Shown here in pieces: positions 42,209 through 64,000 of a stretch of 64,000 nt of DNA. Positions within the stretch are counted from its first letter, which is position 1; every line of letters starts with the position of its first letter. This DNA is from a virus. Lineage: Duplodnaviria > Caudoviricetes. Below the pieces are notes generated by a model. That model was not told where the DNA came from, made no database searches, and saw only the letters and a program-made list of their open reading frames with translations. The DNA lies in IMG/VR virus record IMGVR_UViG_3300033068_001847, positions 120,210 through 184,209 of that record. One strand, given 5' to 3'. The position numbers and the translations under genes are program-made.

Positions 42209-42825
42209 TATTTAATTACATGCTAGAAAACTCTCCATTTGATAATGATGATGAAATTAAAAATCAAATTGTTAAAACATTATGTTATAAAATAACTGAG
42301 AAAATTCATAATAATAAAGCATATGTTAATTACTTACTTAATAGTCCAATCTTACATGAAAAATTATTAGTAACGTTGAACGATGCATTACATATTCACG
42401 AAATTGATGAAAATTATGAAATGTGCCAGATGCTTTATAATTTTAAGAATATTCTGATCAAACAGAATTTGAATTAATGAAAAAGTTCCTTATTTTAGTA
42501 TTTACCTTTTTAATAGTTTTCCCACTTGGAATAATATCTAAATTATTTTATTGGGTACATTCAACAATCAATCAACTGTTAATATTTTACAAAAATTCTA
42601 TTGATAAAAATCAAGTTAAAAAATGGACAACTATTTTTAATGTAGAATCTAAAGAAGGTACTTGGGAAATAATAAACGGAAAATTGGATATTGTAAATAA
42701 AGATGTTGAAATAATTAAGGACGGAATAGATTTTTTATATTTCAAAGATAATGAAATAGACCCTACTTTTAATATTAAATTAACAGCTATTGAATTTCAA
42801 GAACTATTAGATTTTGCAACACATT

Positions 42826-50200: not shown

Positions 50201-50863
50201 ATGAAACCATTTTTCGAACCAAAGTTAGGTTCTAAACTTAGATTTTTACCACCTGTACTCAACCAAGAATCAGCGATAACACGGAGTAATGTCACATTAG
50301 ATCAAATGGATCAAGTAATTGGGAAAGCGTTATTTACTCAAGCTGATATTATATTAACAATTAATAGATCCAAAAAACCTCTTATATCTTATCCAATTCC
50401 TGTAATAAAAGGTTTAGGTAAGGGGCAAATTAATACTTTTTTAGCACCTAGTGGTATAGGTAAATCAACCTACATGGAACGACAAATTAAACTCTATGAA
50501 TTAACCCGTAAATTAAAAACAATCAATAAAAATCTACGTGAATTCTTTTTACCATATTCTATTGAAAATAATCCAAAAAAGAAAGGTAATATTACGTCAT
50601 GTGTTAACTGCTATTACATAGCAAATAAAGTTGCAATCACTATTAATTTATTCAAATTCAATAAGACTCTTTTCCCACGTACCTCAACAACTACTTTAGT
50701 TAAAGATTTTTCTGAAGTCATTACAATGTTATTGGAGAAAAATGTTGAATTAGTTTATGCATATCATTTTTATCTTTTGGATGGTAATGAAGTTATTTAT
50801 AATCCAATAACTAAAATAGTAACTACAGGAGGTATGGTAAAAGTTACAAACAATTATACTTAA
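50201..50863 (+). CDS. Chimeric protein: helicase-like peptides plus C-terminal paralog-family domain
   Basis: GLGKGQINTFLAPSGIGKST; C-terminal INKNLREFFLPY...STTTLVKDFSEVI. Confidence 0.55.
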   Translation: MKPFFEPKLGSKLRFLPPVLNQESAITRSNVTLDQMDQVIGKALFTQADIILTINRSKKPLISYPIPVIKGLGKGQINTFLAPSGIGKSTYMERQIKLYELTRKLKTINKNLREFFLPYSIENNPKKKGNITSCVNCYYIANKVAITINLFKFNKTLFPRTSTTTLVKDFSEVITMLLEKNVELVYAYHFYLLDGNEVIYNPITKIVTTGGMVKVTNNYT

Positions 50864-51140
50864 TTCTATTCTTCTGCTTCTATTCCGAAAATATTATTAA
50901 TATCATCTACTGTTATAGTTCCAAATTTATTCAATTTGTTTAATAACTCTTTTCTATAATTATTTTTTTCCTTATCGAAAATCTGTTGTAGTTCTTTACC
51001 AGCAGATTTATAACCTTGGAAACCATCTCGTTCAGGATGTATATAAATATGTTTTGCTACTATTAGTGACAAGTTTTTCATATATCAAAAATATATAAAA
51101 AACTTGACTTTTACAAAAGGTATATTATTTTAGTTTAAAC

Positions 51141-54100: not shown

Positions 54101-57100
54101 TAAGGATTATATAAATCAACATGAGTGGAATAAATATAAATTACAAGCTGTATAATATACCTATTTGTCCAACTCATAATCGCTTGGATTTACCATACAA
54201 TGCTTGGCATGAAGAAGCTGATAGACGTTCAAAAAAAGGTATGAAACAAAAACAATGTCCAGTATGTAAACTGTGGCTTTGGAAAGATGAAATATAATGG
54301 AAAAAGAAATAACATGGATATCAATCTCAGAAGCAACACCTGAAGTTGAAGGTTACTATCAAGTAAAATATAGTGACGGTGAAATTGATGAAAAATGGTA
54401 TAGAATTGTACCAGCAAGAAATCTGATTGGATTTATGACTTTTAAATCTATAACCCACTGGAGTAAAGATGTAGCAGATAATAGTGTAGAAATTGATTAA
54501 CGTGGAAAAAATGAATTGGGAAATAAGAGTACAACATAATTATTATGGAACTAATGTATTATCTTTCAAAAAAGAATTCGAAGTACCATTTCCTCCATTT
54601 ATTGGAATGACTTTTACTGATGATAAAGATGATTTTGAAAATAATATTGATTTTGAAAGTAATAATTACCAACAACTTTATATTGAATATTTATCAAAAT
54701 CGAACTCATTTTATATTAGTGTAAAACATATCTGGAGATCACCAGTAAGTGATGATACTATAGATTCAGCACTAGAAATATTCCAAGGTTGTGGATGGAC
54801 AAGAGAAGATTCAACTGATTTAACAAAATTTAAATTACGAATGAAGGAGGATTATGAAAAGAATAATAAGTGAACCAGAAGTAACTTATACAATTAGGGT
54901 TGAGGAATTAACAGGTAGAGAAATAATTGCATATCGTTGTCCTAATTCTGATAGTGTACATATCCTTCAAAGACTTAATAGAAAAGAAGATAAATGGGGA
55001 TTTGTATCTTTAGCATATCCAAGCTCTGGTCCTACATTCATAAAGGATACTTTTCATGAATGCGTTAAAGTAGTTATGAAAAATCGTAAACCAATGATGT
55101 TTGATAATCAGGCAGATCTAGTGTATGCTATCCAAGGAAAAAAACTTAAATCATAATGGCAATAGCAAACCCAAGAATACACATTATCTGCGGGATCTGT
55201 GGAGATAATAAATCAATGAAATTTGAAATAGAGAAAGAATGGGATGATTTGTCAGAAAATGATAATACTTACAAAGATGTTGTATATATATCTTGTCGAA
55301 ACTGTGGATCATTAACTTCTCTGGATGAAATTATAGACCAAAAATCATGATTAAATCAATTGAAGATGCTAAAACAGAAAGTACTTGCCAGAAACGTATA
55401 ATAGTTTGCGAGATCTTTGATGTTGATGGTAAGCTACTGGCAAGGGAAAGTAATAGATGTGAACCTGAAGGTGAAACATGTCACCGCATCGGTGTAGTTC
55501 AAGCTAAGGAAGGATATGATGTAAATAGTTCATGTAACTGGACTCATGCTGAAATCATGGCAATAAATGCTTTACCTAATAATAGTAGACCGTATAAAGC
55601 AGTGATATCAGGTCATGATTTTTATTGTGATGCTTGTGAAGAAGCTTTAAAAAATATTGGTGTTGAAATATTAGAAATTAAAAAATGACAAAGAAAGAAA
55701 TTTTAGATTTACTGGAAGAATATTCTGATGATACAGAGATTCAGTTTGCTTACGAAAATAAATATGAGTGATATATGTTTACCTGAATATCTTTGTGATG
55801 TATTAGAGGAAGCGTATTATATTAAAGGACAACCACTAACCGAAGAACAAGTAGTAAATGTTTTATCTGGAGAAATTATTCCAATAGCATTTAAAAATTT
55901 TCACTTTAATACAAGATCTGAAGTTTCTATGAAAATTTTAAATTCATCTAAATTAACTTTTAAATAAAGAGTTTAAAAAATGATCGTTAAGCATAAATCT
56001 ACTAGTAGTATAAGAAATACAGATAAAACTTGGTGTATTGAGTGGTGTTTTAGACATCCAAACAATTTAGATCAAACACCTTATTTTAGTTATTATAAAT
56101 CATATAGGACTTTCGATGCAGTAGTGGATGCTTATATTGGTCTCCAAAACAGAAAAAATAGACTCAAAGGAGATTATAAACATTTTTTCAGAATAAATAA
56201 AGTAGATTTTACTAATTATATACCATTATGATATATCCGTTTAATTTTAACTATCACTTTGAAGCTAAGGAAATAGTAAGACGAAAAGCTGCTGGTGAAT
56301 TAACATTTACTGATGCTTTTCGTTTATTGGAATGGGTGGAGAATAGAGCTTATGAGCTAGATCCACAAGCTGAACCTGATGGAGATATAACATATGTGGT
56401 AGCTGTAGCTGCTTCTGAAATTAGAGAAGCAGATTTTGAGGGATATAAAAAACATTTTAAAATTAAAGATTAATATGAGTAAATTTATTTGTACAGCACC
56501 TGCAAAAGATGCTTTTAATGTATACGGTGAATTCATCGGTGTAGATGAAAAGAGAGCTATATTTTATTCCAAAACTATTGGAACGCATAGATGGTATAGA
56601 GCAGAGTTAGAAAAACCTCAAAAAGGTTTAACACTCCTAGTTTATAGTTCCGAAAAAAGAGCTACAGAAGTTTGTAATGAAATTAATAAAGCCCTTAATG
56701 ATAATTTTCAACCAGAACCATATGAAGAAAAAGTATAACGAATTTAGAGATGATGTTGCTAAGTCCTATGGATATACTTCATTTACGGAGTGTCGTATAA
56801 AAGTTGCAAATCATGCAGAACCAGCAACTAAAATGATTAATATTTGTGAAGAAGCAGCCGAACTATATGCTCAACCTAATGTTGATCTGGAAAATAAATT
56901 AGAGTACTATAGATCTGAAACAGCAAAGATCAGAGATTACGTATTTGGAAGTGATGATATTGGATATCCAACCCAATCAATATTCGAAGCGGTTACAGAT
57001 AAAATTGATTCATTGAAACATGAACTTGAAATATTAAAAACCAAATATGAAAGTCGTAAAGAATTCTTTGCATACGTGCTAGGATCAACAGTAGTTGCAT

Positions 57101-58587
57101 TAACATCAGAGGAAAAACAAGATTCAATCCTACTTCAGAAAAATATAAATGAGTTGAATGTTTTTATAGAACAATATTCTGGCACACCCGATGAACTAAT
57201 AGTTAATGTTTATAAGAATAAAGAACAAATACATACAAATACTGGTCCTGTAATGGAAGTAGTTGAAAATCTACTTAATTTAATTAATACTAATGGAAAA
57301 TTGGAGTTATTATAAATCCTACAGGAGTTATGGATGCGTGGTGTCAATTAACCAAGTCTTATGGTAAACCACATTATTATTATTATAAATATGAATATCG
57401 AATAAACAAAACAGAATTTAATGAAAACTCTTAAGACTGTAGAAGTAACACCAGTATTTTTTGAAGGATCTGCTCCAGCATGGAAAGATATGGAGCAAAA
57501 TGTGATCTATATTTCTTATGAATATGAATTAGCATTACATTTATGTTTATGTGGTTGTAAGGAAAAAACTGTTATGCCATTTGATAAAAAATACGGATGG
57601 AAATTAATTGTAAATGGGGGATAAAATTTCCTTCACACCTTCAATATCAAATTATCAAGCACCGTGTAAATCACATTATATAATCACTAATAATAAAGCT
57701 AATTTTGTATAAAATGAAAACAGTTAAACTAATTAATGATGATTTTTCAAATACCGAAGCAATTTGGGCAAAAAATGCTTTGATTGTAGGTGAAGAATTT
57801 CCTATTAAAGGGGATATGTATATAGTAGAAGAAGAATTTCATGATAAAATTGAAAATATAATAGCTTATCAATTAGAAGGATTTGATTATTCTGCTTACG
57901 GAGATGAAGCAGGGTGGTTTTTAGCTAGTAGATTTGAAATAATAGAAGATGTATTTACACCAAATTATGTAGATGAAGATACTGGAAAGTTATTTGAGAA
58001 AAATTATTCTATTAGAAATAAATGGACATTATGATAACATTAGATATTTTTACAGAAAATATTAGAAAATATAATAGAACTAAATATTTAAAAACTGTAA
58101 TTGAAAAAGTTAATAATGGTGAGGGTTATATGTCCATTTATGGTTATCATGTTATTTTTAATAAATATCTAATAGGATATAGTAAAAATAATATGGATGG
58201 GATTATACACCACCAATTAAAATAAAAAATGAAAGTAGAAATTAAAGATCTTATGGAAGAACTAAATAGCATACTTGAAGATATGTGGGATCGTAGTTTG
58301 GATAGAAAAAGAGTTAATGAATTTGTTGATGCAATAGGTGAAATTAGCGATAAAGTAGTAGAAATAATTAATGAAAATAAAGAAATATGAAAATCACAAT
58401 TAACTGGACACCCGAAAAAAAAGATGCGGTCTGCGCTGAAATAGAAAAATGGATTATTAAATACGGTGCATATAGTGGCGAAAAACTGATGCAGGATGAT
58501 GACTGCCAAATAGAAGCTCCCGTATTATTAGCGGATCTTGTCGATGATATAATCGAACCCGATTATAATTATGATGACGAGAACTAA
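51141..58587 (+). CDS. Dense run of small hypothetical early ORFs, including DUF551-like 53884-54075 and 54297-54500 and Zn-ribbon proteins at 51141 and 55156
   Basis: Co-oriented with overlapping start/stop codons; W..PE...W DUF551-like pattern; CxxC pairs. Confidence 0.5.
55347..55688 (+). CDS. Cytidine/dCMP deaminase-fold protein
   Basis: HAE...CxxC zinc motif (THAEIMA...YCDAC). Confidence 0.75.
   Translation: MIKSIEDAKTESTCQKRIIVCEIFDVDGKLLARESNRCEPEGETCHRIGVVQAKEGYDVNSSCNWTHAEIMAINALPNNSRPYKAVISGHDFYCDACEEALKNIGVEILEIKK
57421..57712 (+). pseudogene. DUF6527-like Cys/His protein split by a one-base frameshift in a G5 run
   Basis: HLCLCGC...W in frame 1; the continuation SFTPSI...PCKSHYII is one base out at 57616-57620. 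Confidence 0.7.
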
Positions 58588-58632
58588 ATAAGGCGAAGCC
58601 GATGAACTTTTGCGGAGCTAAGGACTACCATA

Positions 58633-59004
58633 ATGAAAAATAATTACCATAATGAAAGAAGGACACCAATAGATAGATTGTGTAAATTTTTTAAACCTTA
58701 TTTAAAACCTATTAATGAAAATACATTTACGTTTATGTGGTCAGATAATCAATTTTCATTACATGTTAAAATATATCACTTTAAAAAAAAATATTATAAA
58801 CTAACAACTACACTAGTAGATGAATCAAAATTTTTTAAAGATTTCATAGAAGTTCTCGAAATAATTTTAATACCTGATGAAATAGAAAAAATTAATGGCA
58901 GGGTCGTTTTCCATGATATAGATAAATATGGTGAATCTTTTATAATTCGAAAGTTTAAAATTAAATCATGGGTAGATAATCCAAAAAATGTCTGGAAAAT
59001 ATAA
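58633..59004 (+). CDS. Paralog array member 1
   Basis: RLCKFFKPY...FFKDFIEVLEIILIPDE. Confidence 0.7.
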   Translation: MKNNYHNERRTPIDRLCKFFKPYLKPINENTFTFMWSDNQFSLHVKIYHFKKKYYKLTTTLVDESKFFKDFIEVLEIILIPDEIEKINGRVVFHDIDKYGESFIIRKFKIKSWVDNPKNVWKI

Positions 59005-59333
59005 TGAATGTGAATATCTTGTCAAATATTAATAATAAACTCTATGAGTACTTCGTTAATTTTACTTCTGAACTAGATAAATCACAAGAACTTTTTACTG
59101 CATTGTACGTGTATTATGATGATGGTACTGGTAAATTTTTTATTCGACTACAAGTAAATGATTTTATAAAATATTATAGAGATTTCTTCGAAAAATATTA
59201 TCGTAAATTCACATTAGATGTAGCAGAAGTTCTTAGATTTATACTAACTGAAGAAGAATTGCAATATGTAAATCGTACACTGTTAATCTTTATGGGATGG
59301 AATGGTGATATTCAATGTAGAACAATATTATGA
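59004..59333 (+). CDS. Paralog array member 2
   Basis: INNKLYEYF...LDVAEVLRFILTEEE. Confidence 0.7.
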   Translation: MNVNILSNINNKLYEYFVNFTSELDKSQELFTALYVYYDDGTGKFFIRLQVNDFIKYYRDFFEKYYRKFTLDVAEVLRFILTEEELQYVNRTLLIFMGWNGDIQCRTIL

Positions 59334-59635
59334 ATAAGCAAGGATGGAATGAAATAAATTTTAAACTATGGCAGTTCTTTAATCCATTTACTAAAGAACC
59401 AGTAGATTCATATTCTGATTTTAGTGCATTAGAAGTAGGCATAAATAATTTCGAGGTATGTATAGTCGTTCATTTAGAACAACTACAACCTAAATTTATA
59501 TTATCAACAACTAGACTTGTTAACGACTTAAAAGAAGTATTAGAAATCCTTTTGGTCGATTATGAATGGGAATTGTTTGGAGGGCGATTATATTTTTATG
59601 ATAAATCAGGTAGCTTCGGAGTGTTTACAATATAA
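59330..59635 (+). CDS. Paralog array member 3
   Basis: INFKLWQFF...STTRLVNDLKEVLEILL. Confidence 0.7.
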   Translation: MNKQGWNEINFKLWQFFNPFTKEPVDSYSDFSALEVGINNFEVCIVVHLEQLQPKFILSTTRLVNDLKEVLEILLVDYEWELFGGRLYFYDKSGSFGVFTI

Positions 59636-59703
59636 ACAATGGATATACAAAAACTGGTAAAATCATTCAGTGATAAAGAAATACTAAATTACATTTATTA
59701 AAA

Positions 59704-60033
59704 ATGGAATCTAATCAGAAACGAGCAGAGATAACTATCATTAATAGAAAACTAGCAGAATTTTTTAAAACGCATGTTAAAAACGATCTAATATCAATAT
59801 ATTTAGCAGTGTGGGTAGGTACTGATGATCCAGATACAGCTATTTTTATGCAGGTAGATATCAATAAATTTATTATATGGGATGTTATTTTTTCATACGA
59901 TAAATTTATGGAAGATTTTACCGATGTTATTAGAACAATATTAACTATAAATGAAATAATGTTAGTAGGTAATAAAATTTATTTTACACATAAAGATTGG
60001 GATGAACCATATATTTTTACACCAATAATATGA
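59704..60033 (+). CDS. Paralog array member 4
   Basis: INRKLAEFF...FMEDFTDVIRTILTINE. Confidence 0.7.
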   Translation: MESNQKRAEITIINRKLAEFFKTHVKNDLISIYLAVWVGTDDPDTAIFMQVDINKFIIWDVIFSYDKFMEDFTDVIRTILTINEIMLVGNKIYFTHKDWDEPYIFTPII

Positions 60034-60764
60034 ATACAAAAGAACAAGTATTGCAGAATTGCACAGTAGATGGAAAAGTAGTAAAACTTCCTAACGTACA
60101 ACTTGACCGTAAACTTTACCAAGAAGTAGCCAAAGCATTAGAATTGATTGGTGGAAAATGGAAAGGTGGTAAAGTTTTTGGGTTCGTATTTACAATAGAT
60201 CCAACAGATTTATTAAACCAAATTAAGAACGGTGAAAAGAGAAATTTGAAAAAGGAATTTCAGTTTTTTTCAACTTCAGAAAAAATTGCTGATGAATTGA
60301 TTTATTTAGCTAATTTGAATGAACACGACACAATTTTAGAACCTAGTGCAGGACAAGGTGCAATTATTAAAGCTATAAACAAAGCTTGTAATGTTGTACC
60401 TGATTGCTTTGAATTAATGGACGTAAATAGATTTATTTTAAATAAAAGCGATTTGCGTTTTAATTTGATCGGTAATGACTTTTTCAAACACAACGGTAAA
60501 AAGTATAGCAAAATAATAGCAAATCCACCATTTACGAAAAATCAAGATATTGATCATTTAAAAGAAATGTATGAATGTCTTTCTAGTGGAGGTATATTGG
60601 TTTGTATAACTTCTGAAAGTTGGGTAAAAGGAAGTCAAAAAAAACAAATTGATTTTAAAAATTGGCTTGATGAAGTTGAAGCTGAAGTGATAGATATTGA
60701 AAAAGGTTCTTTCAAAGAAAGTGGTACAATGGTGGGGGGTAAAATTGTTGTCATAAGAAAATAA
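60030..60764 (+). CDS. SAM-dependent DNA (probably N6-adenine) methyltransferase
   Basis: QFFST, ILEPSAGQGAI (motif I) and IIANPPF (motif IV). Confidence 0.88.
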   Translation: MNTKEQVLQNCTVDGKVVKLPNVQLDRKLYQEVAKALELIGGKWKGGKVFGFVFTIDPTDLLNQIKNGEKRNLKKEFQFFSTSEKIADELIYLANLNEHDTILEPSAGQGAIIKAINKACNVVPDCFELMDVNRFILNKSDLRFNLIGNDFFKHNGKKYSKIIANPPFTKNQDIDHLKEMYECLSSGGILVCITSESWVKGSQKKQIDFKNWLDEVEAEVIDIEKGSFKESGTMVGGKIVVIRK

Positions 60765-60780
60765 TTGTATATTTAATATT

Positions 60781-61107
60781 ATGAATTTAATATCAGAAGA
60801 AACTGTTAGGAATATAGAAATTACTTTATTTAATTTCTTTAAACCTTTTTTAAAATCACCAATATTTCCATGTACAGCTATCGGATTACATCAAGCTAAA
60901 GTAAGTAATCCGAATGATCGAACTTATATAATAATAGGATTAGATTATTTTAAAGAAGATCTGGTTACTAATAATAGATTTGTGAAAGATACTATAGAAG
61001 TAATTAAATATCTTCTTACTGAAGAAGAAATATATTGGTCAGGTAATAAAATAATATTCTTAGGTGAAATAAATGAACCGTGTAAAATAGAAACTATAAT
61101 AAAATAA
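60781..61107 (+). CDS. Paralog array member 5
   Basis: TLFNFFKPF...VTNNRFVKDTIEVIKYLLTEEE. Confidence 0.7.
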   Translation: MNLISEETVRNIEITLFNFFKPFLKSPIFPCTAIGLHQAKVSNPNDRTYIIIGLDYFKEDLVTNNRFVKDTIEVIKYLLTEEEIYWSGNKIIFLGEINEPCKIETIIK

Positions 61108-61110
61108 TAA

Positions 61111-61470
61111 ATGACTTCTACTTCACTACCATTACCATTTGCGTTTTTAACAGATAGACAAAAAATAATACATATTCAAAACAAGCTGGATAAGTTCTTT
61201 AATAAATTTACTGTTAGCCAACCTGATATACCTATATTATCATTCGTCAATGTTACTGAAGAGCAAGGCTTTAAATTTATAGCTATACAGCAAAAATATC
61301 TTTGTCTAACATTTTTTAGAAAAGCACAAAATAGTCAAGAAATAATTTTTGAAAATGTAATAGAAGTTCTCGAATCGTTATTAACAGGAGAGGAATGTAG
61401 ATTGGTTACTAGAGCAATCTACTTTGATAGAGAAGGAAAAATAATATATAATACAAGCTTAGAATATTGA
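61111..61470 (+). CDS. Paralog array member 6
   Basis: IQNKLDKFF...IFENVIEVLESLLTGEE. Confidence 0.7.
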   Translation: MTSTSLPLPFAFLTDRQKIIHIQNKLDKFFNKFTVSQPDIPILSFVNVTEEQGFKFIAIQQKYLCLTFFRKAQNSQEIIFENVIEVLESLLTGEECRLVTRAIYFDREGKIIYNTSLEY

Positions 61471-61471
61471 A

Positions 61472-61810
61472 ATGTCAGCATTAAAACCAAATCCATTTTT
61501 ACATAAAAATATTCTAGCGATACTGGATAATAAAATTCAAAGTCATTTTAGAGAATATACTGTAAATACTGTATTTTCATCATTCGTTAAAATAGAAGTT
61601 TATGATGGTTACATGTGTATCGTTATTAGAGAAGCAAATATTAAAAGTGAATATATAAACAAAGCAGATGGTATATCTGAAGTAATCTTTGAACATGTAA
61701 TAGAAATTATTGAAAATCTACTGACCAATAATGAAAGGGATTTCATAAATAAAGTAGTATACCTGTTACCTAATGATATACTAGGATTTAGTCGGATAAT
61801 AGAATTCTAA
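61472..61810 (+). CDS. Paralog array member 7
   Basis: LDNKIQSHF...IFEHVIEIIENLLTNNE. Confidence 0.7.
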   Translation: MSALKPNPFLHKNILAILDNKIQSHFREYTVNTVFSSFVKIEVYDGYMCIVIREANIKSEYINKADGISEVIFEHVIEIIENLLTNNERDFINKVVYLLPNDILGFSRIIEF

Positions 61811-62229
61811 TGTCACAAAACTTAAGAAGTATGAATAGGGAACTCTACCTATTCTTTCATGAATATACTGTAGATGCCAGAACATGCGTTAGAATAAAAC
61901 CAATGGATGAAAATGGACGGTATACTATTTGTGTTAACTACAATTTGTTAGCTATGAAAATCCGTAAGGACTTCGAAGGAGTTTTATCAGATGTTGCTGA
62001 AGTATGTCATACACTGTTTACTCCTGAAGAATCTGCTATTATAGAAGATATTGAATTAGTGTATAATAACAAGTTTGTATGTGGACAGAAATTTAATTTG
62101 TCACCAGTAGATGATGATCTGAAAATAGATTGGTCTAAAGTAACTCATCCACTAGTAAAACAAATTAAAAGTAATTATCCGAAAACAATAGATAAACTAT
62201 TTGTTACAAAAGCCAGATATAGTAGATGA
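61810..62229 (+). CDS. Paralog array member 8, with C-terminal extension
   Basis: MNRELYLFFHEY...LSDVAEVCHTLFTPEE. Confidence 0.7.
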   Translation: MSQNLRSMNRELYLFFHEYTVDARTCVRIKPMDENGRYTICVNYNLLAMKIRKDFEGVLSDVAEVCHTLFTPEESAIIEDIELVYNNKFVCGQKFNLSPVDDDLKIDWSKVTHPLVKQIKSNYPKTIDKLFVTKARYSR

Positions 62230-62342
62230 TATGATGTTTAGTATTCAAGAAATGCTTGCACTAGATCTCAAAAATTTTGACCAAAAAACTTGACTTTTTA
62301 ATATACTGATTTATTTTAGTAAATGAACCAGAAACTTATTAA

Positions 62343-63812
62343 ATGGGTAATTATTTAAATACTGAGAAATTTATAGAAATAGCTAAAGTAACTCATAATA
62401 ATAAATTTGATTATAATAGATCCGAATTTGTTAATCAACATCAACCTATAATAATCATTTGTCCCGATCATGGTGAATACCTACAAGCACCTCGTGATCA
62501 TTTAAGATCTACTTATGGTTGTCCAAAGTGTGTTAAGAAAGTCAGAAGCTCCAGTACTATAGCGAAGCAGTTCGATAAATTTAAGGATAAAGCTGATAAA
62601 AAGTTCGGAGATAAATTTAAATATATTCAAAGTTCGTTTGTAAATACAAATACACCGATCTCAATTATCTGTGATAAAGGTCATAGTTTTAAACGTGATC
62701 CTGATGTACATTTAGTTAGTACTACAGGATGTCCAGTATGTTATAAGGAATTACAATCTAAAATTAGAGAAGAGAAAAAAATAGCTATAAAGAACAAACC
62801 CAAATATGTAAGAGCTACAAAACCATTAAGTTATTTTATTGAAAGAGTTGAAAGTAAATTTGGTAAACATATTTTTGATTTTTCGCAAACTATCTATCAT
62901 AATCAGATATCACCAGTAACGGTTAGGTGTATTAAGCATGATTTTTATTTTACCAAAAAAAGAGCATCTAAATTATTAGAAAGTAAAGGGTGTCCTAAAT
63001 GCAGTGCAGAACAAAAAGCAATAGCTTCACGTCTTACAGAAGAACAATTTATTGAAAAAAGTAAAAATCAGTTTGGAACTAAATACGATTATTCAAATTT
63101 AAACTATATCAAAACACGAGCAGATATTAAAATTAGATGTATCGAACATGATCATTGGTTTACAACTTCAGGTAAAAATCACATTGACTCTGATTTAGGA
63201 GGTTGTAAATATTGTATAGGAGAAATGATCAGCAGGAACAGTGTGTCAAATACTGAAAAATTTGTTGAACAAGCTACCTTAATACATGATACAAGATACG
63301 GTTATGCTTTAGTTGATTATAAAACAGCTAAAGATAATGTTAAAATTATATGTCATAAACACGGTGTCTTTAATCAAATGCCAGCAACACATTTAAATGG
63401 TGGCGGGTGTATTTTTTGTACGACATGGGGTGGATCTATTGAGTTTAAATTTTTGTCAATCATTAAAGAAGCTTTCCCTGATGAAGAAATCATTACCCAA
63501 GCAAAACCTTTATGGCTCGGACGACAAAGATTTGATATATATTTTCCAGATTATAATATAGCAATTGAATTGCAAGGCAGACAACATTTTAGAGTAGTTG
63601 GTCATTGGGGAGGAAAAGATGGGTTGGAATCTGTACAAAAACTCGATGAGAAAAAATATAATCTAGCATTAGATAATGACTGTAAATTATATTACTTTAC
63701 ATATGTTAAAAGCAAGTTCTTACCAGAAACTTATTTAGATAAACTCCATGTTGATCCAACAGAATTAATAAATGAAATAAAGTCAAATATTTTGGCTCAA
63801 AAAAATTTGTAG
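62343..63812 (+). mobile_element. Putative homing endonuclease: about five DUF723-like Zn-binding repeats plus C-terminal DUF559/PD-(D/E)XK nuclease
   Basis: Repeats of F..K....Y.Y....Y......I.C..H.....H....GC..C; RFDIYFPD.NIAIELQG.QH. Confidence 0.8.
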
Positions 63813-63903: not shown

Positions 63904-64000
63904 CCCCGCCCCTAAAAGGGGGTAGGGGGAGGGGGGTGTATAAGGGGATACCCCTAGGGGGTCTCCAGTAGGGGGTAGTCATGGGGCGGTATGTATGGGG
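63904..64000 (+). other. G-tract-rich non-coding island (G-quadruplex-competent), truncated by the window edge
   Basis: Eight runs of 4-6 G in about 85 nt of an otherwise very AT-rich sequence. Confidence 0.7.

Follow-up and report, generated by a model that had tools for sequence, protein, structure and literature searches.

The window analysed here is the final 64 kb of a linear IMG/VR contig of 184,209 bp (IMGVR_UViG_3300033068_001847; CheckV completeness estimate 53%) from an uncultured T4-type myovirus. Between 58633 and 62229 its + strand carries a tandem array of eight small open reading frames (ORFs), which are true paralogs, and a ninth copy lies upstream as one domain of a longer ORF. 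The family that they form is lineage-restricted, previously undescribed and present in none of the libraries searched. Positions follow the window numbering unless marked as genome positions, and residues are numbered after the member starting at 58633. The copies are as follows:

58633..59004, + strand: member 1, 123 amino acids (aa), isoelectric point (pI) 9.5; leave-one-out E 1.5e-11; AlphaFold predicted local distance difference test (pLDDT) 73.8
59004..59333, + strand: member 2, 109 aa; start overlaps the preceding stop by 1 nucleotide (nt); leave-one-out E 9e-14
59330..59635, + strand: member 3, 101 aa; ATGA start/stop overlap with member 2; leave-one-out E 4.1e-13
59704..60033, + strand: member 4, 109 aa; highest-confidence model (pLDDT 87.2, predicted template modelling score (pTM) 0.80); leave-one-out E 1.1e-14
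60781..61107, + strand: member 5, 108 aa; leave-one-out E 2.6e-10; closest to the outside relative P0009
61111..61470, + strand: member 6, 119 aa; leave-one-out E 1.2e-13; pairs with member 7 at 30% identity
61472..61810, + strand: member 7, 112 aa; leave-one-out E 2.4e-9
61810..62229, + strand: member 8, 139 aa; C-terminal tail of ~35 aa past the domain; leave-one-out E 5.3e-7
50465..50815, + strand: ninth copy, residues ~89-205 of the 220-aa ORF 50201-50863; profile E 2.2e-8

An initial annotation of this DNA had described one skeleton common to the eight array ORFs. Its coordinates are right, all eight ORFs lying on the + strand, and the description holds: the eight can be aligned over their whole length at pairwise identities of 17-30%, pairwise BLAST by itself connects some of the pairs, and residual similarity at the DNA level is detectable in the codons of the C-terminal helix (families D1-D3). 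The genome-wide profile search proposed at the time was run in leave-one-out form, with profiles from seven members against all 572 genome ORFs of at least 40 codons. The omitted member was recovered every time, with E values from 1.1e-14 to 5.3e-7, and the best unrelated ORF never scored better than 0.0055. The ninth copy obtained the E value listed above with a profile lacking 50201, and values of 1.4e-6 to 8.9e-10 in the leave-one-out runs. This is the largest paralog set in the genome, the next sets having 2-4 members and including large late-strand ORFs.

Three dispersed copies had also been proposed. The C-terminus of 50201 stands as such a copy, whereas 49631 and 44126 score at the level of shuffled sequences and were rejected as members, with hhalign probabilities of 2.3% and 1.1% and profile scores matched or beaten by 80-459 and 646-954, respectively, of 2000 shuffles of the same sequences (the same scores being reached in 4-48% of trials). 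The expansion, put at about 11-fold in the initial annotation, comes down to nine copies, eight in tandem and one fused.

Structures of 58633 and 59704 were predicted by AlphaFold2 with the family alignment (scores listed above), as had also been proposed. Both models show, in identical order, a long N-terminal helix, a beta-hairpin, a short helical turn, a long helix, a short helix and a beta-hairpin; they were built on one alignment, so their agreement is not independent. The copies are predicted to share one fold (helix, beta-hairpin, two helices, beta-hairpin), that of a small soluble alpha/beta protein of ~100-120 aa. F20 and E83 are invariant across the eight array members, and the common motifs are L-x-x-F-F in the N-terminal helix and D-x-x-E-V-x-x-x-L-L-T-x-E-E in the C-terminal helix. 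Conserved columns are mostly core hydrophobics of the two long helices and the strands (I13, L17, F20, F21, I49, V75, L79 and L80), joined by the polar positions K16, D71 and E74 and by T81-x-x-E84, a helix capping box where the short helix begins. Column-by-column inspection of the alignment revealed no conserved His, Cys or Ser and no conserved glycine-rich loop, so that an enzyme is unlikely. Indels and substitutions cluster in the two hairpins, in the two tails and in the linker that precedes the long helix; the earlier picture of a conserved scaffold with a variable part is borne out, the scaffold being kept and the variable segments being rich in indels.

The copies also differ in charge. 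Net charge ranges from about -6 to +7 and pI from 4.6 to 9.5, six of the nine copies being acidic (pI 4.6-5.8) and three neutral or basic. A DNA-mimic anti-restriction type such as Ocr or ArdA was rejected on this account, acidity not being common to all members.

Fold comparison yielded weak neighbours. Foldseek searches against PDB and BFVD gave nothing better than E 0.11, the AcrIIA5 anti-CRISPR chain at E 1.5 in these searches being noise, and the ESM Atlas contained no usable neighbour. In the all-against-all structural search the two models reached at most Z 5.5 and 6.0, the noise level stated for the tool being 7-8. Ring-building motifs, type II KH-like domains and nucleotidyltransferase N-lobes recur among the weak neighbours, which, for these predicted models, would mean a generic two-layer alpha/beta sandwich. 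A polymerase-beta-type nucleotidyltransferase (CD-NTase N-lobe) was considered at Z 4.3-5.0 but rejected, neither G-[SG] nor D-x-D motifs being conserved.

The open frames bear on the maintenance of the copies. With the base composition found locally, stops would make up 9.5% of random codons, and the chance of 100 open codons is ~5e-5; despite 17-30% identity and saturating divergence, all nine frames are open. With more than one substitution per site and every frame intact at this stop frequency, the copies are therefore old and kept by selection. A maximum-likelihood tree has branches of 1-3.5 substitutions per site and resolves almost nothing, showing only a weak split of 61111, 61472 and 61810 from the remainder. 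The duplications are ancient and not a recent amplification, because the copies are saturated in both identity and branch length.

The initial annotation had not recognised the family, and the searches agree with it: Pfam, PHROGs, NCBIfam, PADLOC and PDB sequences are all without a match. In the curated libraries the best E values were 0.038 for Pfam (one of eight members), 0.041 for NCBIfam, 0.0068 for PHROGs v4 (one of eight members, with a different family for each member) and 0.0065 for PADLOC-DB (one of 12), none of them significant. When 1.84 billion cluster representatives were searched exhaustively with an HMMER profile, the family's own eight proteins were joined by three weak outside relatives with E values of 1.7e-4 to 5.7e-4, all of which carry the same helix motifs. 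Two come from JGI (P0009 and P0011), each on one 2160-bp contig, and the third lies on a 981-bp Logan contig; the two JGI sequences are probably on the same contig, and adjacency is suggested. Relatives thus occur in at least two other metagenome samples. P0009 and member 5 (60781) are 35% identical in the family alignment and 42% pairwise, exceeding any pair of window paralogs. In the tree the three outside sequences are placed among the window paralogs and not outside them; therefore, the duplications predate the split from those other phages.

Further searches did not extend this distribution. A word-seeded search for relatives contributed no further sequence, tblastn with two members matched none of 50,697 GenBank phage records, and neither P0009, P0011 nor an alignment of two sequences picked up anything when run against contigs from viruses and metagenomes. 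When the codons of E-V-x-x-x-L-L-T-x-E-E were sought as a degenerate DNA motif, at least 120 loci came up, with no true member among the matches listed. Seven related viral records, reached via the capsid protein (62% identity), the CCA-adding enzyme (40%) or the methyltransferase described below, contain no member at E <= 1, which is weak evidence of absence since all seven are fragments (including ones of 170 kb and 163 kb). The neighbouring gene at 56677 had no relatives usable for synteny.

Two further genes belong to the immediate setting of the array:

60030-60764, + strand: N6-adenine-type DNA methyltransferase, 244 aa, with an NPPF motif; not a family member, splitting the array into four and four
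62343-63812, + strand: probable homing-type endonuclease, 489 aa, the gene directly after the array

The methyltransferase gene, which the initial annotation did not mention as interrupting the array, starts in an ATGA overlap with the stop of member 4. Its product matches PHROG DNA methyltransferase families with E values down to 7.6e-58, Pfam methyltransferase matches being weak. The gene is found in nine IMG/VR contigs, with protein identities of 74-89% in eight and 60% in the ninth; at the nucleotide level, identity is 78-85% in the eight and ~72% in patches in the ninth, and its limits (60024-60774) coincide with the ORF borders. These nine contigs share no other window gene, and almost no neighbour gene is common among the nine loci. 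The gene also occurs at 88% in a contig of a Bacteroidia metagenome-assembled genome and at 67% within a 5.4-Mb Prolixibacteraceae contig. From the homology limits at the ORF borders and the unshared neighbours across the nine contigs, the methyltransferase is therefore a promiscuous mobile single-gene cassette of Bacteroidota and their phages, inserted inside the array, and its insertion marks the locus as an accessory, insertion-tolerant zone. In the protein encoded downstream, DUF723/treble-clef zinc modules are repeated and the endonuclease part lies at the C-terminus (PHROG 'HNH endonuclease', E 2e-61), and its gene contains an internal DNA repeat (62357 and 63248).

Apart from this insertion the array genes abut or overlap, with TAATG and ATGA junctions, gaps of 1-16 nt and two gaps of 45 and 68 nt, a packing that resembles one tightly coupled, co-translated gene string. 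None of the array genes (58600-62343) is preceded by a Shine-Dalgarno-like sequence, the upstream 30 nt being A/T-rich, which would suit a host whose translation starts without such pairing, e.g. one of the Bacteroidota. The host of the phage is probably a member of this phylum, which fits both the missing Shine-Dalgarno sequences and the circulation of the methyltransferase cassette among Bacteroidota and their phages. Scans for sigma-70 promoters and terminators remained at chance level. Exact + strand matches to TTG-N19-TATTTTAG occur at 42469-42498, 51104-51133 and 62290-62319, those at 51104 and 62290 being intergenic and just upstream of ORF 51141 and of the endonuclease gene, respectively; with one mismatch allowed, 15 were observed against 9.5 expected, not above chance. 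The promoter-like motif at 62290, between the array and the endonuclease gene, would agree with a transcription unit that ends with the array.

As a T4-type myovirus, the phage encodes a major head protein of the gp23-like kind together with a portal and a large terminase. The capsid protein is merely 27-32% identical to its nearest named relatives (an uncultured 484-kb phage and Microcystis phage Mel-JY01), with a Streptococcus phage and T4-like cyanophages at greater distance. G+C content is 25-30%. From ~22.9 kb to the window end the + strand carries nearly all genes, a block that includes a helicase, thymidylate synthase and the CCA-adding enzyme, followed by ~20 kb of small ORFans; the array sits at the far end of this block with ORFans as neighbours. 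Such a position, on a strand block with replication and nucleotide-metabolism genes, among ORFans and beside a mobile DNA methyltransferase, is in line with the earlier placement in an early region, and the proteins of the array are presumably made early in infection.

A few observations from the same region may be added. ORF 57421-57624 (67 aa) has a Pfam DUF6527 match barely over the cut-off (23.9 vs 23.6 bits), and ORF 55347-55688 (113 aa) has a sub-threshold match to the zinc-binding region of cytidine/dCMP deaminases (E 0.0013). The final ~95 bases of the window (63906-64000) are G runs (GGGGG blocks), with CCCCGCCCC just before them, in a genome of ~27% G+C; this poly-G end may mark a terminus of the genome or a signal for packaging, or it may be an artefact that sequencing or assembly left where the contig stops.

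ORF 50201 has a second unusual feature in its N-terminal part, preceding the family domain. There, residues 66-94 are a copy of the Walker A segment in the DnaB-like helicase that the phage itself encodes (480 aa, genome 88553-89995, Pfam DnaB_C), with 13 of 24 positions identical and E 9e-6 within the genome. The segment is far too short for an ATPase domain; either illegitimate recombination would have produced a chimera here, or the copy would be a mimic peptide. The idea of a scaffold displaying decoy peptides of phage proteins was rejected, a significant segment copy being found in 50201 only and in none of the eight array members.

Taken together, the most likely role for these proteins, though a tentative one, is that of a diversified set of early, non-enzymatic binders acting in host takeover or anti-defence. 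This rating of host takeover or counter-defence draws on where the array lies, how many copies there are, their orphan status and precedent; only the absent catalytic motifs and the genomic context suggest binding. The two conserved helices and the strands would serve as a common scaffold, on which the indel-rich hairpins and linker of each paralog would recognise a different target of the host or of a rival element, and binding would either serve host takeover or neutralise defence. With a mobile, self-protecting methyltransferase lodged in mid-array, the locus would then be marked as a dispensable counter-defence or accessory zone. Because phage genomes rarely keep paralogs, nine maintained copies suggest diversified recognition, which is the pattern expected of counter-defence or host-takeover factors. 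In a more specific version, which appears doubtful, a shared face (K16, D71, E74 and E84) would dock a common partner and the nine hairpin/linker surfaces would capture different host immune or housekeeping proteins. If true, this shared-face repertoire would amount to a modular set of adaptors or inhibitors with which one phage copes with many host variants, stable and not transiently amplified.

Several results weigh against the assignment to host takeover or counter-defence. No member matches a known anti-defence, host-takeover or other family in the libraries searched, and no fold match rises above noise. Ancient divergence fits stable sub-functionalisation equally with an arms race, and the searches for relatives found no orthologous arrays for an estimate of nonsynonymous to synonymous substitution rates (dN/dS). 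The heterogeneous charge (pI 4.6-9.5) suggests no single binding mode such as DNA mimicry. Guilt by association hangs on one gene, the methyltransferase, and early timing is read from strand and neighbours only. The same ancient divergence means that the array is not a fresh 'accordion'; if it began as one, the copies have long since become distinct.

Among the alternatives, the weak structural neighbours bring two to mind. The proteins could be RNA- or ribosome-associated modulators of the type II KH-like kind, which would tune translation or the handling of tRNA and rRNA in a phage with a heavy investment in tRNAs. The alpha-beta-beta-alpha-alpha-beta element order of both models matches type II KH; several proteins of the KH type or of ribosome biogenesis (uS3, Era, RbfA, RimP, KhpB and DciA) turn up in each of the two structure searches, with Z 4-4.9; and the genome encodes a CCA-adding enzyme. 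However, these Z scores fall under the noise bar of ~8, Foldseek E values are 0.13 or worse, and the inter-helix loop reads L-(T)-x-(E)-E in 8-11 of 12 sequences with no conserved glycine, G-x-x-G being missing; with six of nine copies acidic as well, such a function is judged unlikely.

An assembly or structural role is similarly improbable, whether as oligomers resembling ring-building motifs or as head-packaged, injected proteins like the T4 internal proteins. Ring-building motifs, which have an alpha-beta-beta-alpha-beta fold and oligomerise into rings, do supply the best structural matches, namely those of FliF, PrgK, EscJ and CdsD (Z 5.0-6.0, root-mean-square deviation 2.9-4.4 A over 64-85 residues for the top matches) and SpoIIIAF (Z 4.8), and the T4 internal-protein loci are likewise polymorphic tandem sets. 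These scores, at Z 6 or below, are nonetheless within noise, and the array genes lie on the early strand, distant from the structural modules. As a T4-type internal protein the family was rejected: the residues before helix 1 vary in sequence and in number (roughly 5 to 22) and have no common targeting or cleavage motif, and conservation spans helix 1, the strands and the C-terminal helices.

Gene context provides the material for a further alternative, in which the copies would be of the immunity or antitoxin type and counter the nucleases or toxins that competing elements bring, acting in superinfection exclusion or protection from homing endonucleases in the manner of bacterial orphan immunity-gene arrays. 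A tandem array of diverged small non-enzymatic proteins, a locus that accepts mobile cassettes and a DUF723/treble-clef homing-type endonuclease directly downstream would all suit it. Yet no cognate toxin genes are interleaved in the array, no similarity to known immunity families was found in the libraries searched, and the endonuclease gene, with a promoter-like motif to itself, appears to form a separate unit, leaving this explanation a slim chance. Functionless amplification leftovers or mis-called ORFs would explain the missing known function and the extremely narrow distribution, but nine intact ORFs of 101-220 aa at saturating divergence and such a stop frequency, conserved core residues, a confident fold prediction and the relatives in other metagenome samples make this very improbable.

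Returning to the reading as a diversified binder set, a family without annotation anywhere and with a confidently predicted compact fold is tractable for structure work and for expression against panels of defence systems. Should each copy have a target of its own, the array would illustrate how a large phage keeps many specificities on a single scaffold; if not, it is just another ORFan family of an uncultured phage. Tandem accessory paralogs in large phages are already known, and what is new is this family, unmatched in all libraries searched.

Comparison with known systems places the array beside several precedents. Type II KH and ring-building-motif domains have a similar order of elements and the same two-layer alpha/beta sandwich and are the best, though weak, neighbours of the predicted models; with Z scores of 4-6 only, no G-x-x-G and no sequence similarity, membership in either cannot be claimed. 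The T4 internal proteins IPI, IPII and IPIII, with their polymorphic locus, are tandem small variable proteins, IPI being an anti-restriction protein, and share only a short N-terminal capsid-targeting sequence (~10 residues) that is removed by the prohead protease. The array is like them in that a T4-type phage encodes small and highly variable proteins in tandem, but its homology runs through the whole domain and its extreme N-termini are the least conserved part.

Another parallel is the small inhibitor gene tifA, which phage T4 amplifies in tandem under pressure from toxIN defence (Srikant, Guegler and Laub 2022, PMC9391042). Both cases involve a T4-type phage, a small non-enzymatic early protein (presumed to be so in the array), tandem copies and a dispensable region, and tifA shows how such arrays can start, by recombination at short homologies (PMC9391042). 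Whereas the tifA copies are identical, recent and unstable, those of the array are 17-30% identical, ancient and individually maintained, and they are without sequence similarity to TifA or to any known target. On a larger scale, hyperplastic regions are where T4-like phages concentrate their variable ORFan genes (PMC4122927, PMC2839356). The array resembles these in consisting of lineage-specific ORFans between conserved core blocks (PMC4122927, PMC2839356) and in the swapping of single genes, here the methyltransferase cassette; however, hyperplastic regions have been described as mixtures of unrelated ORFans, whereas here one family, in eight copies, dominates.

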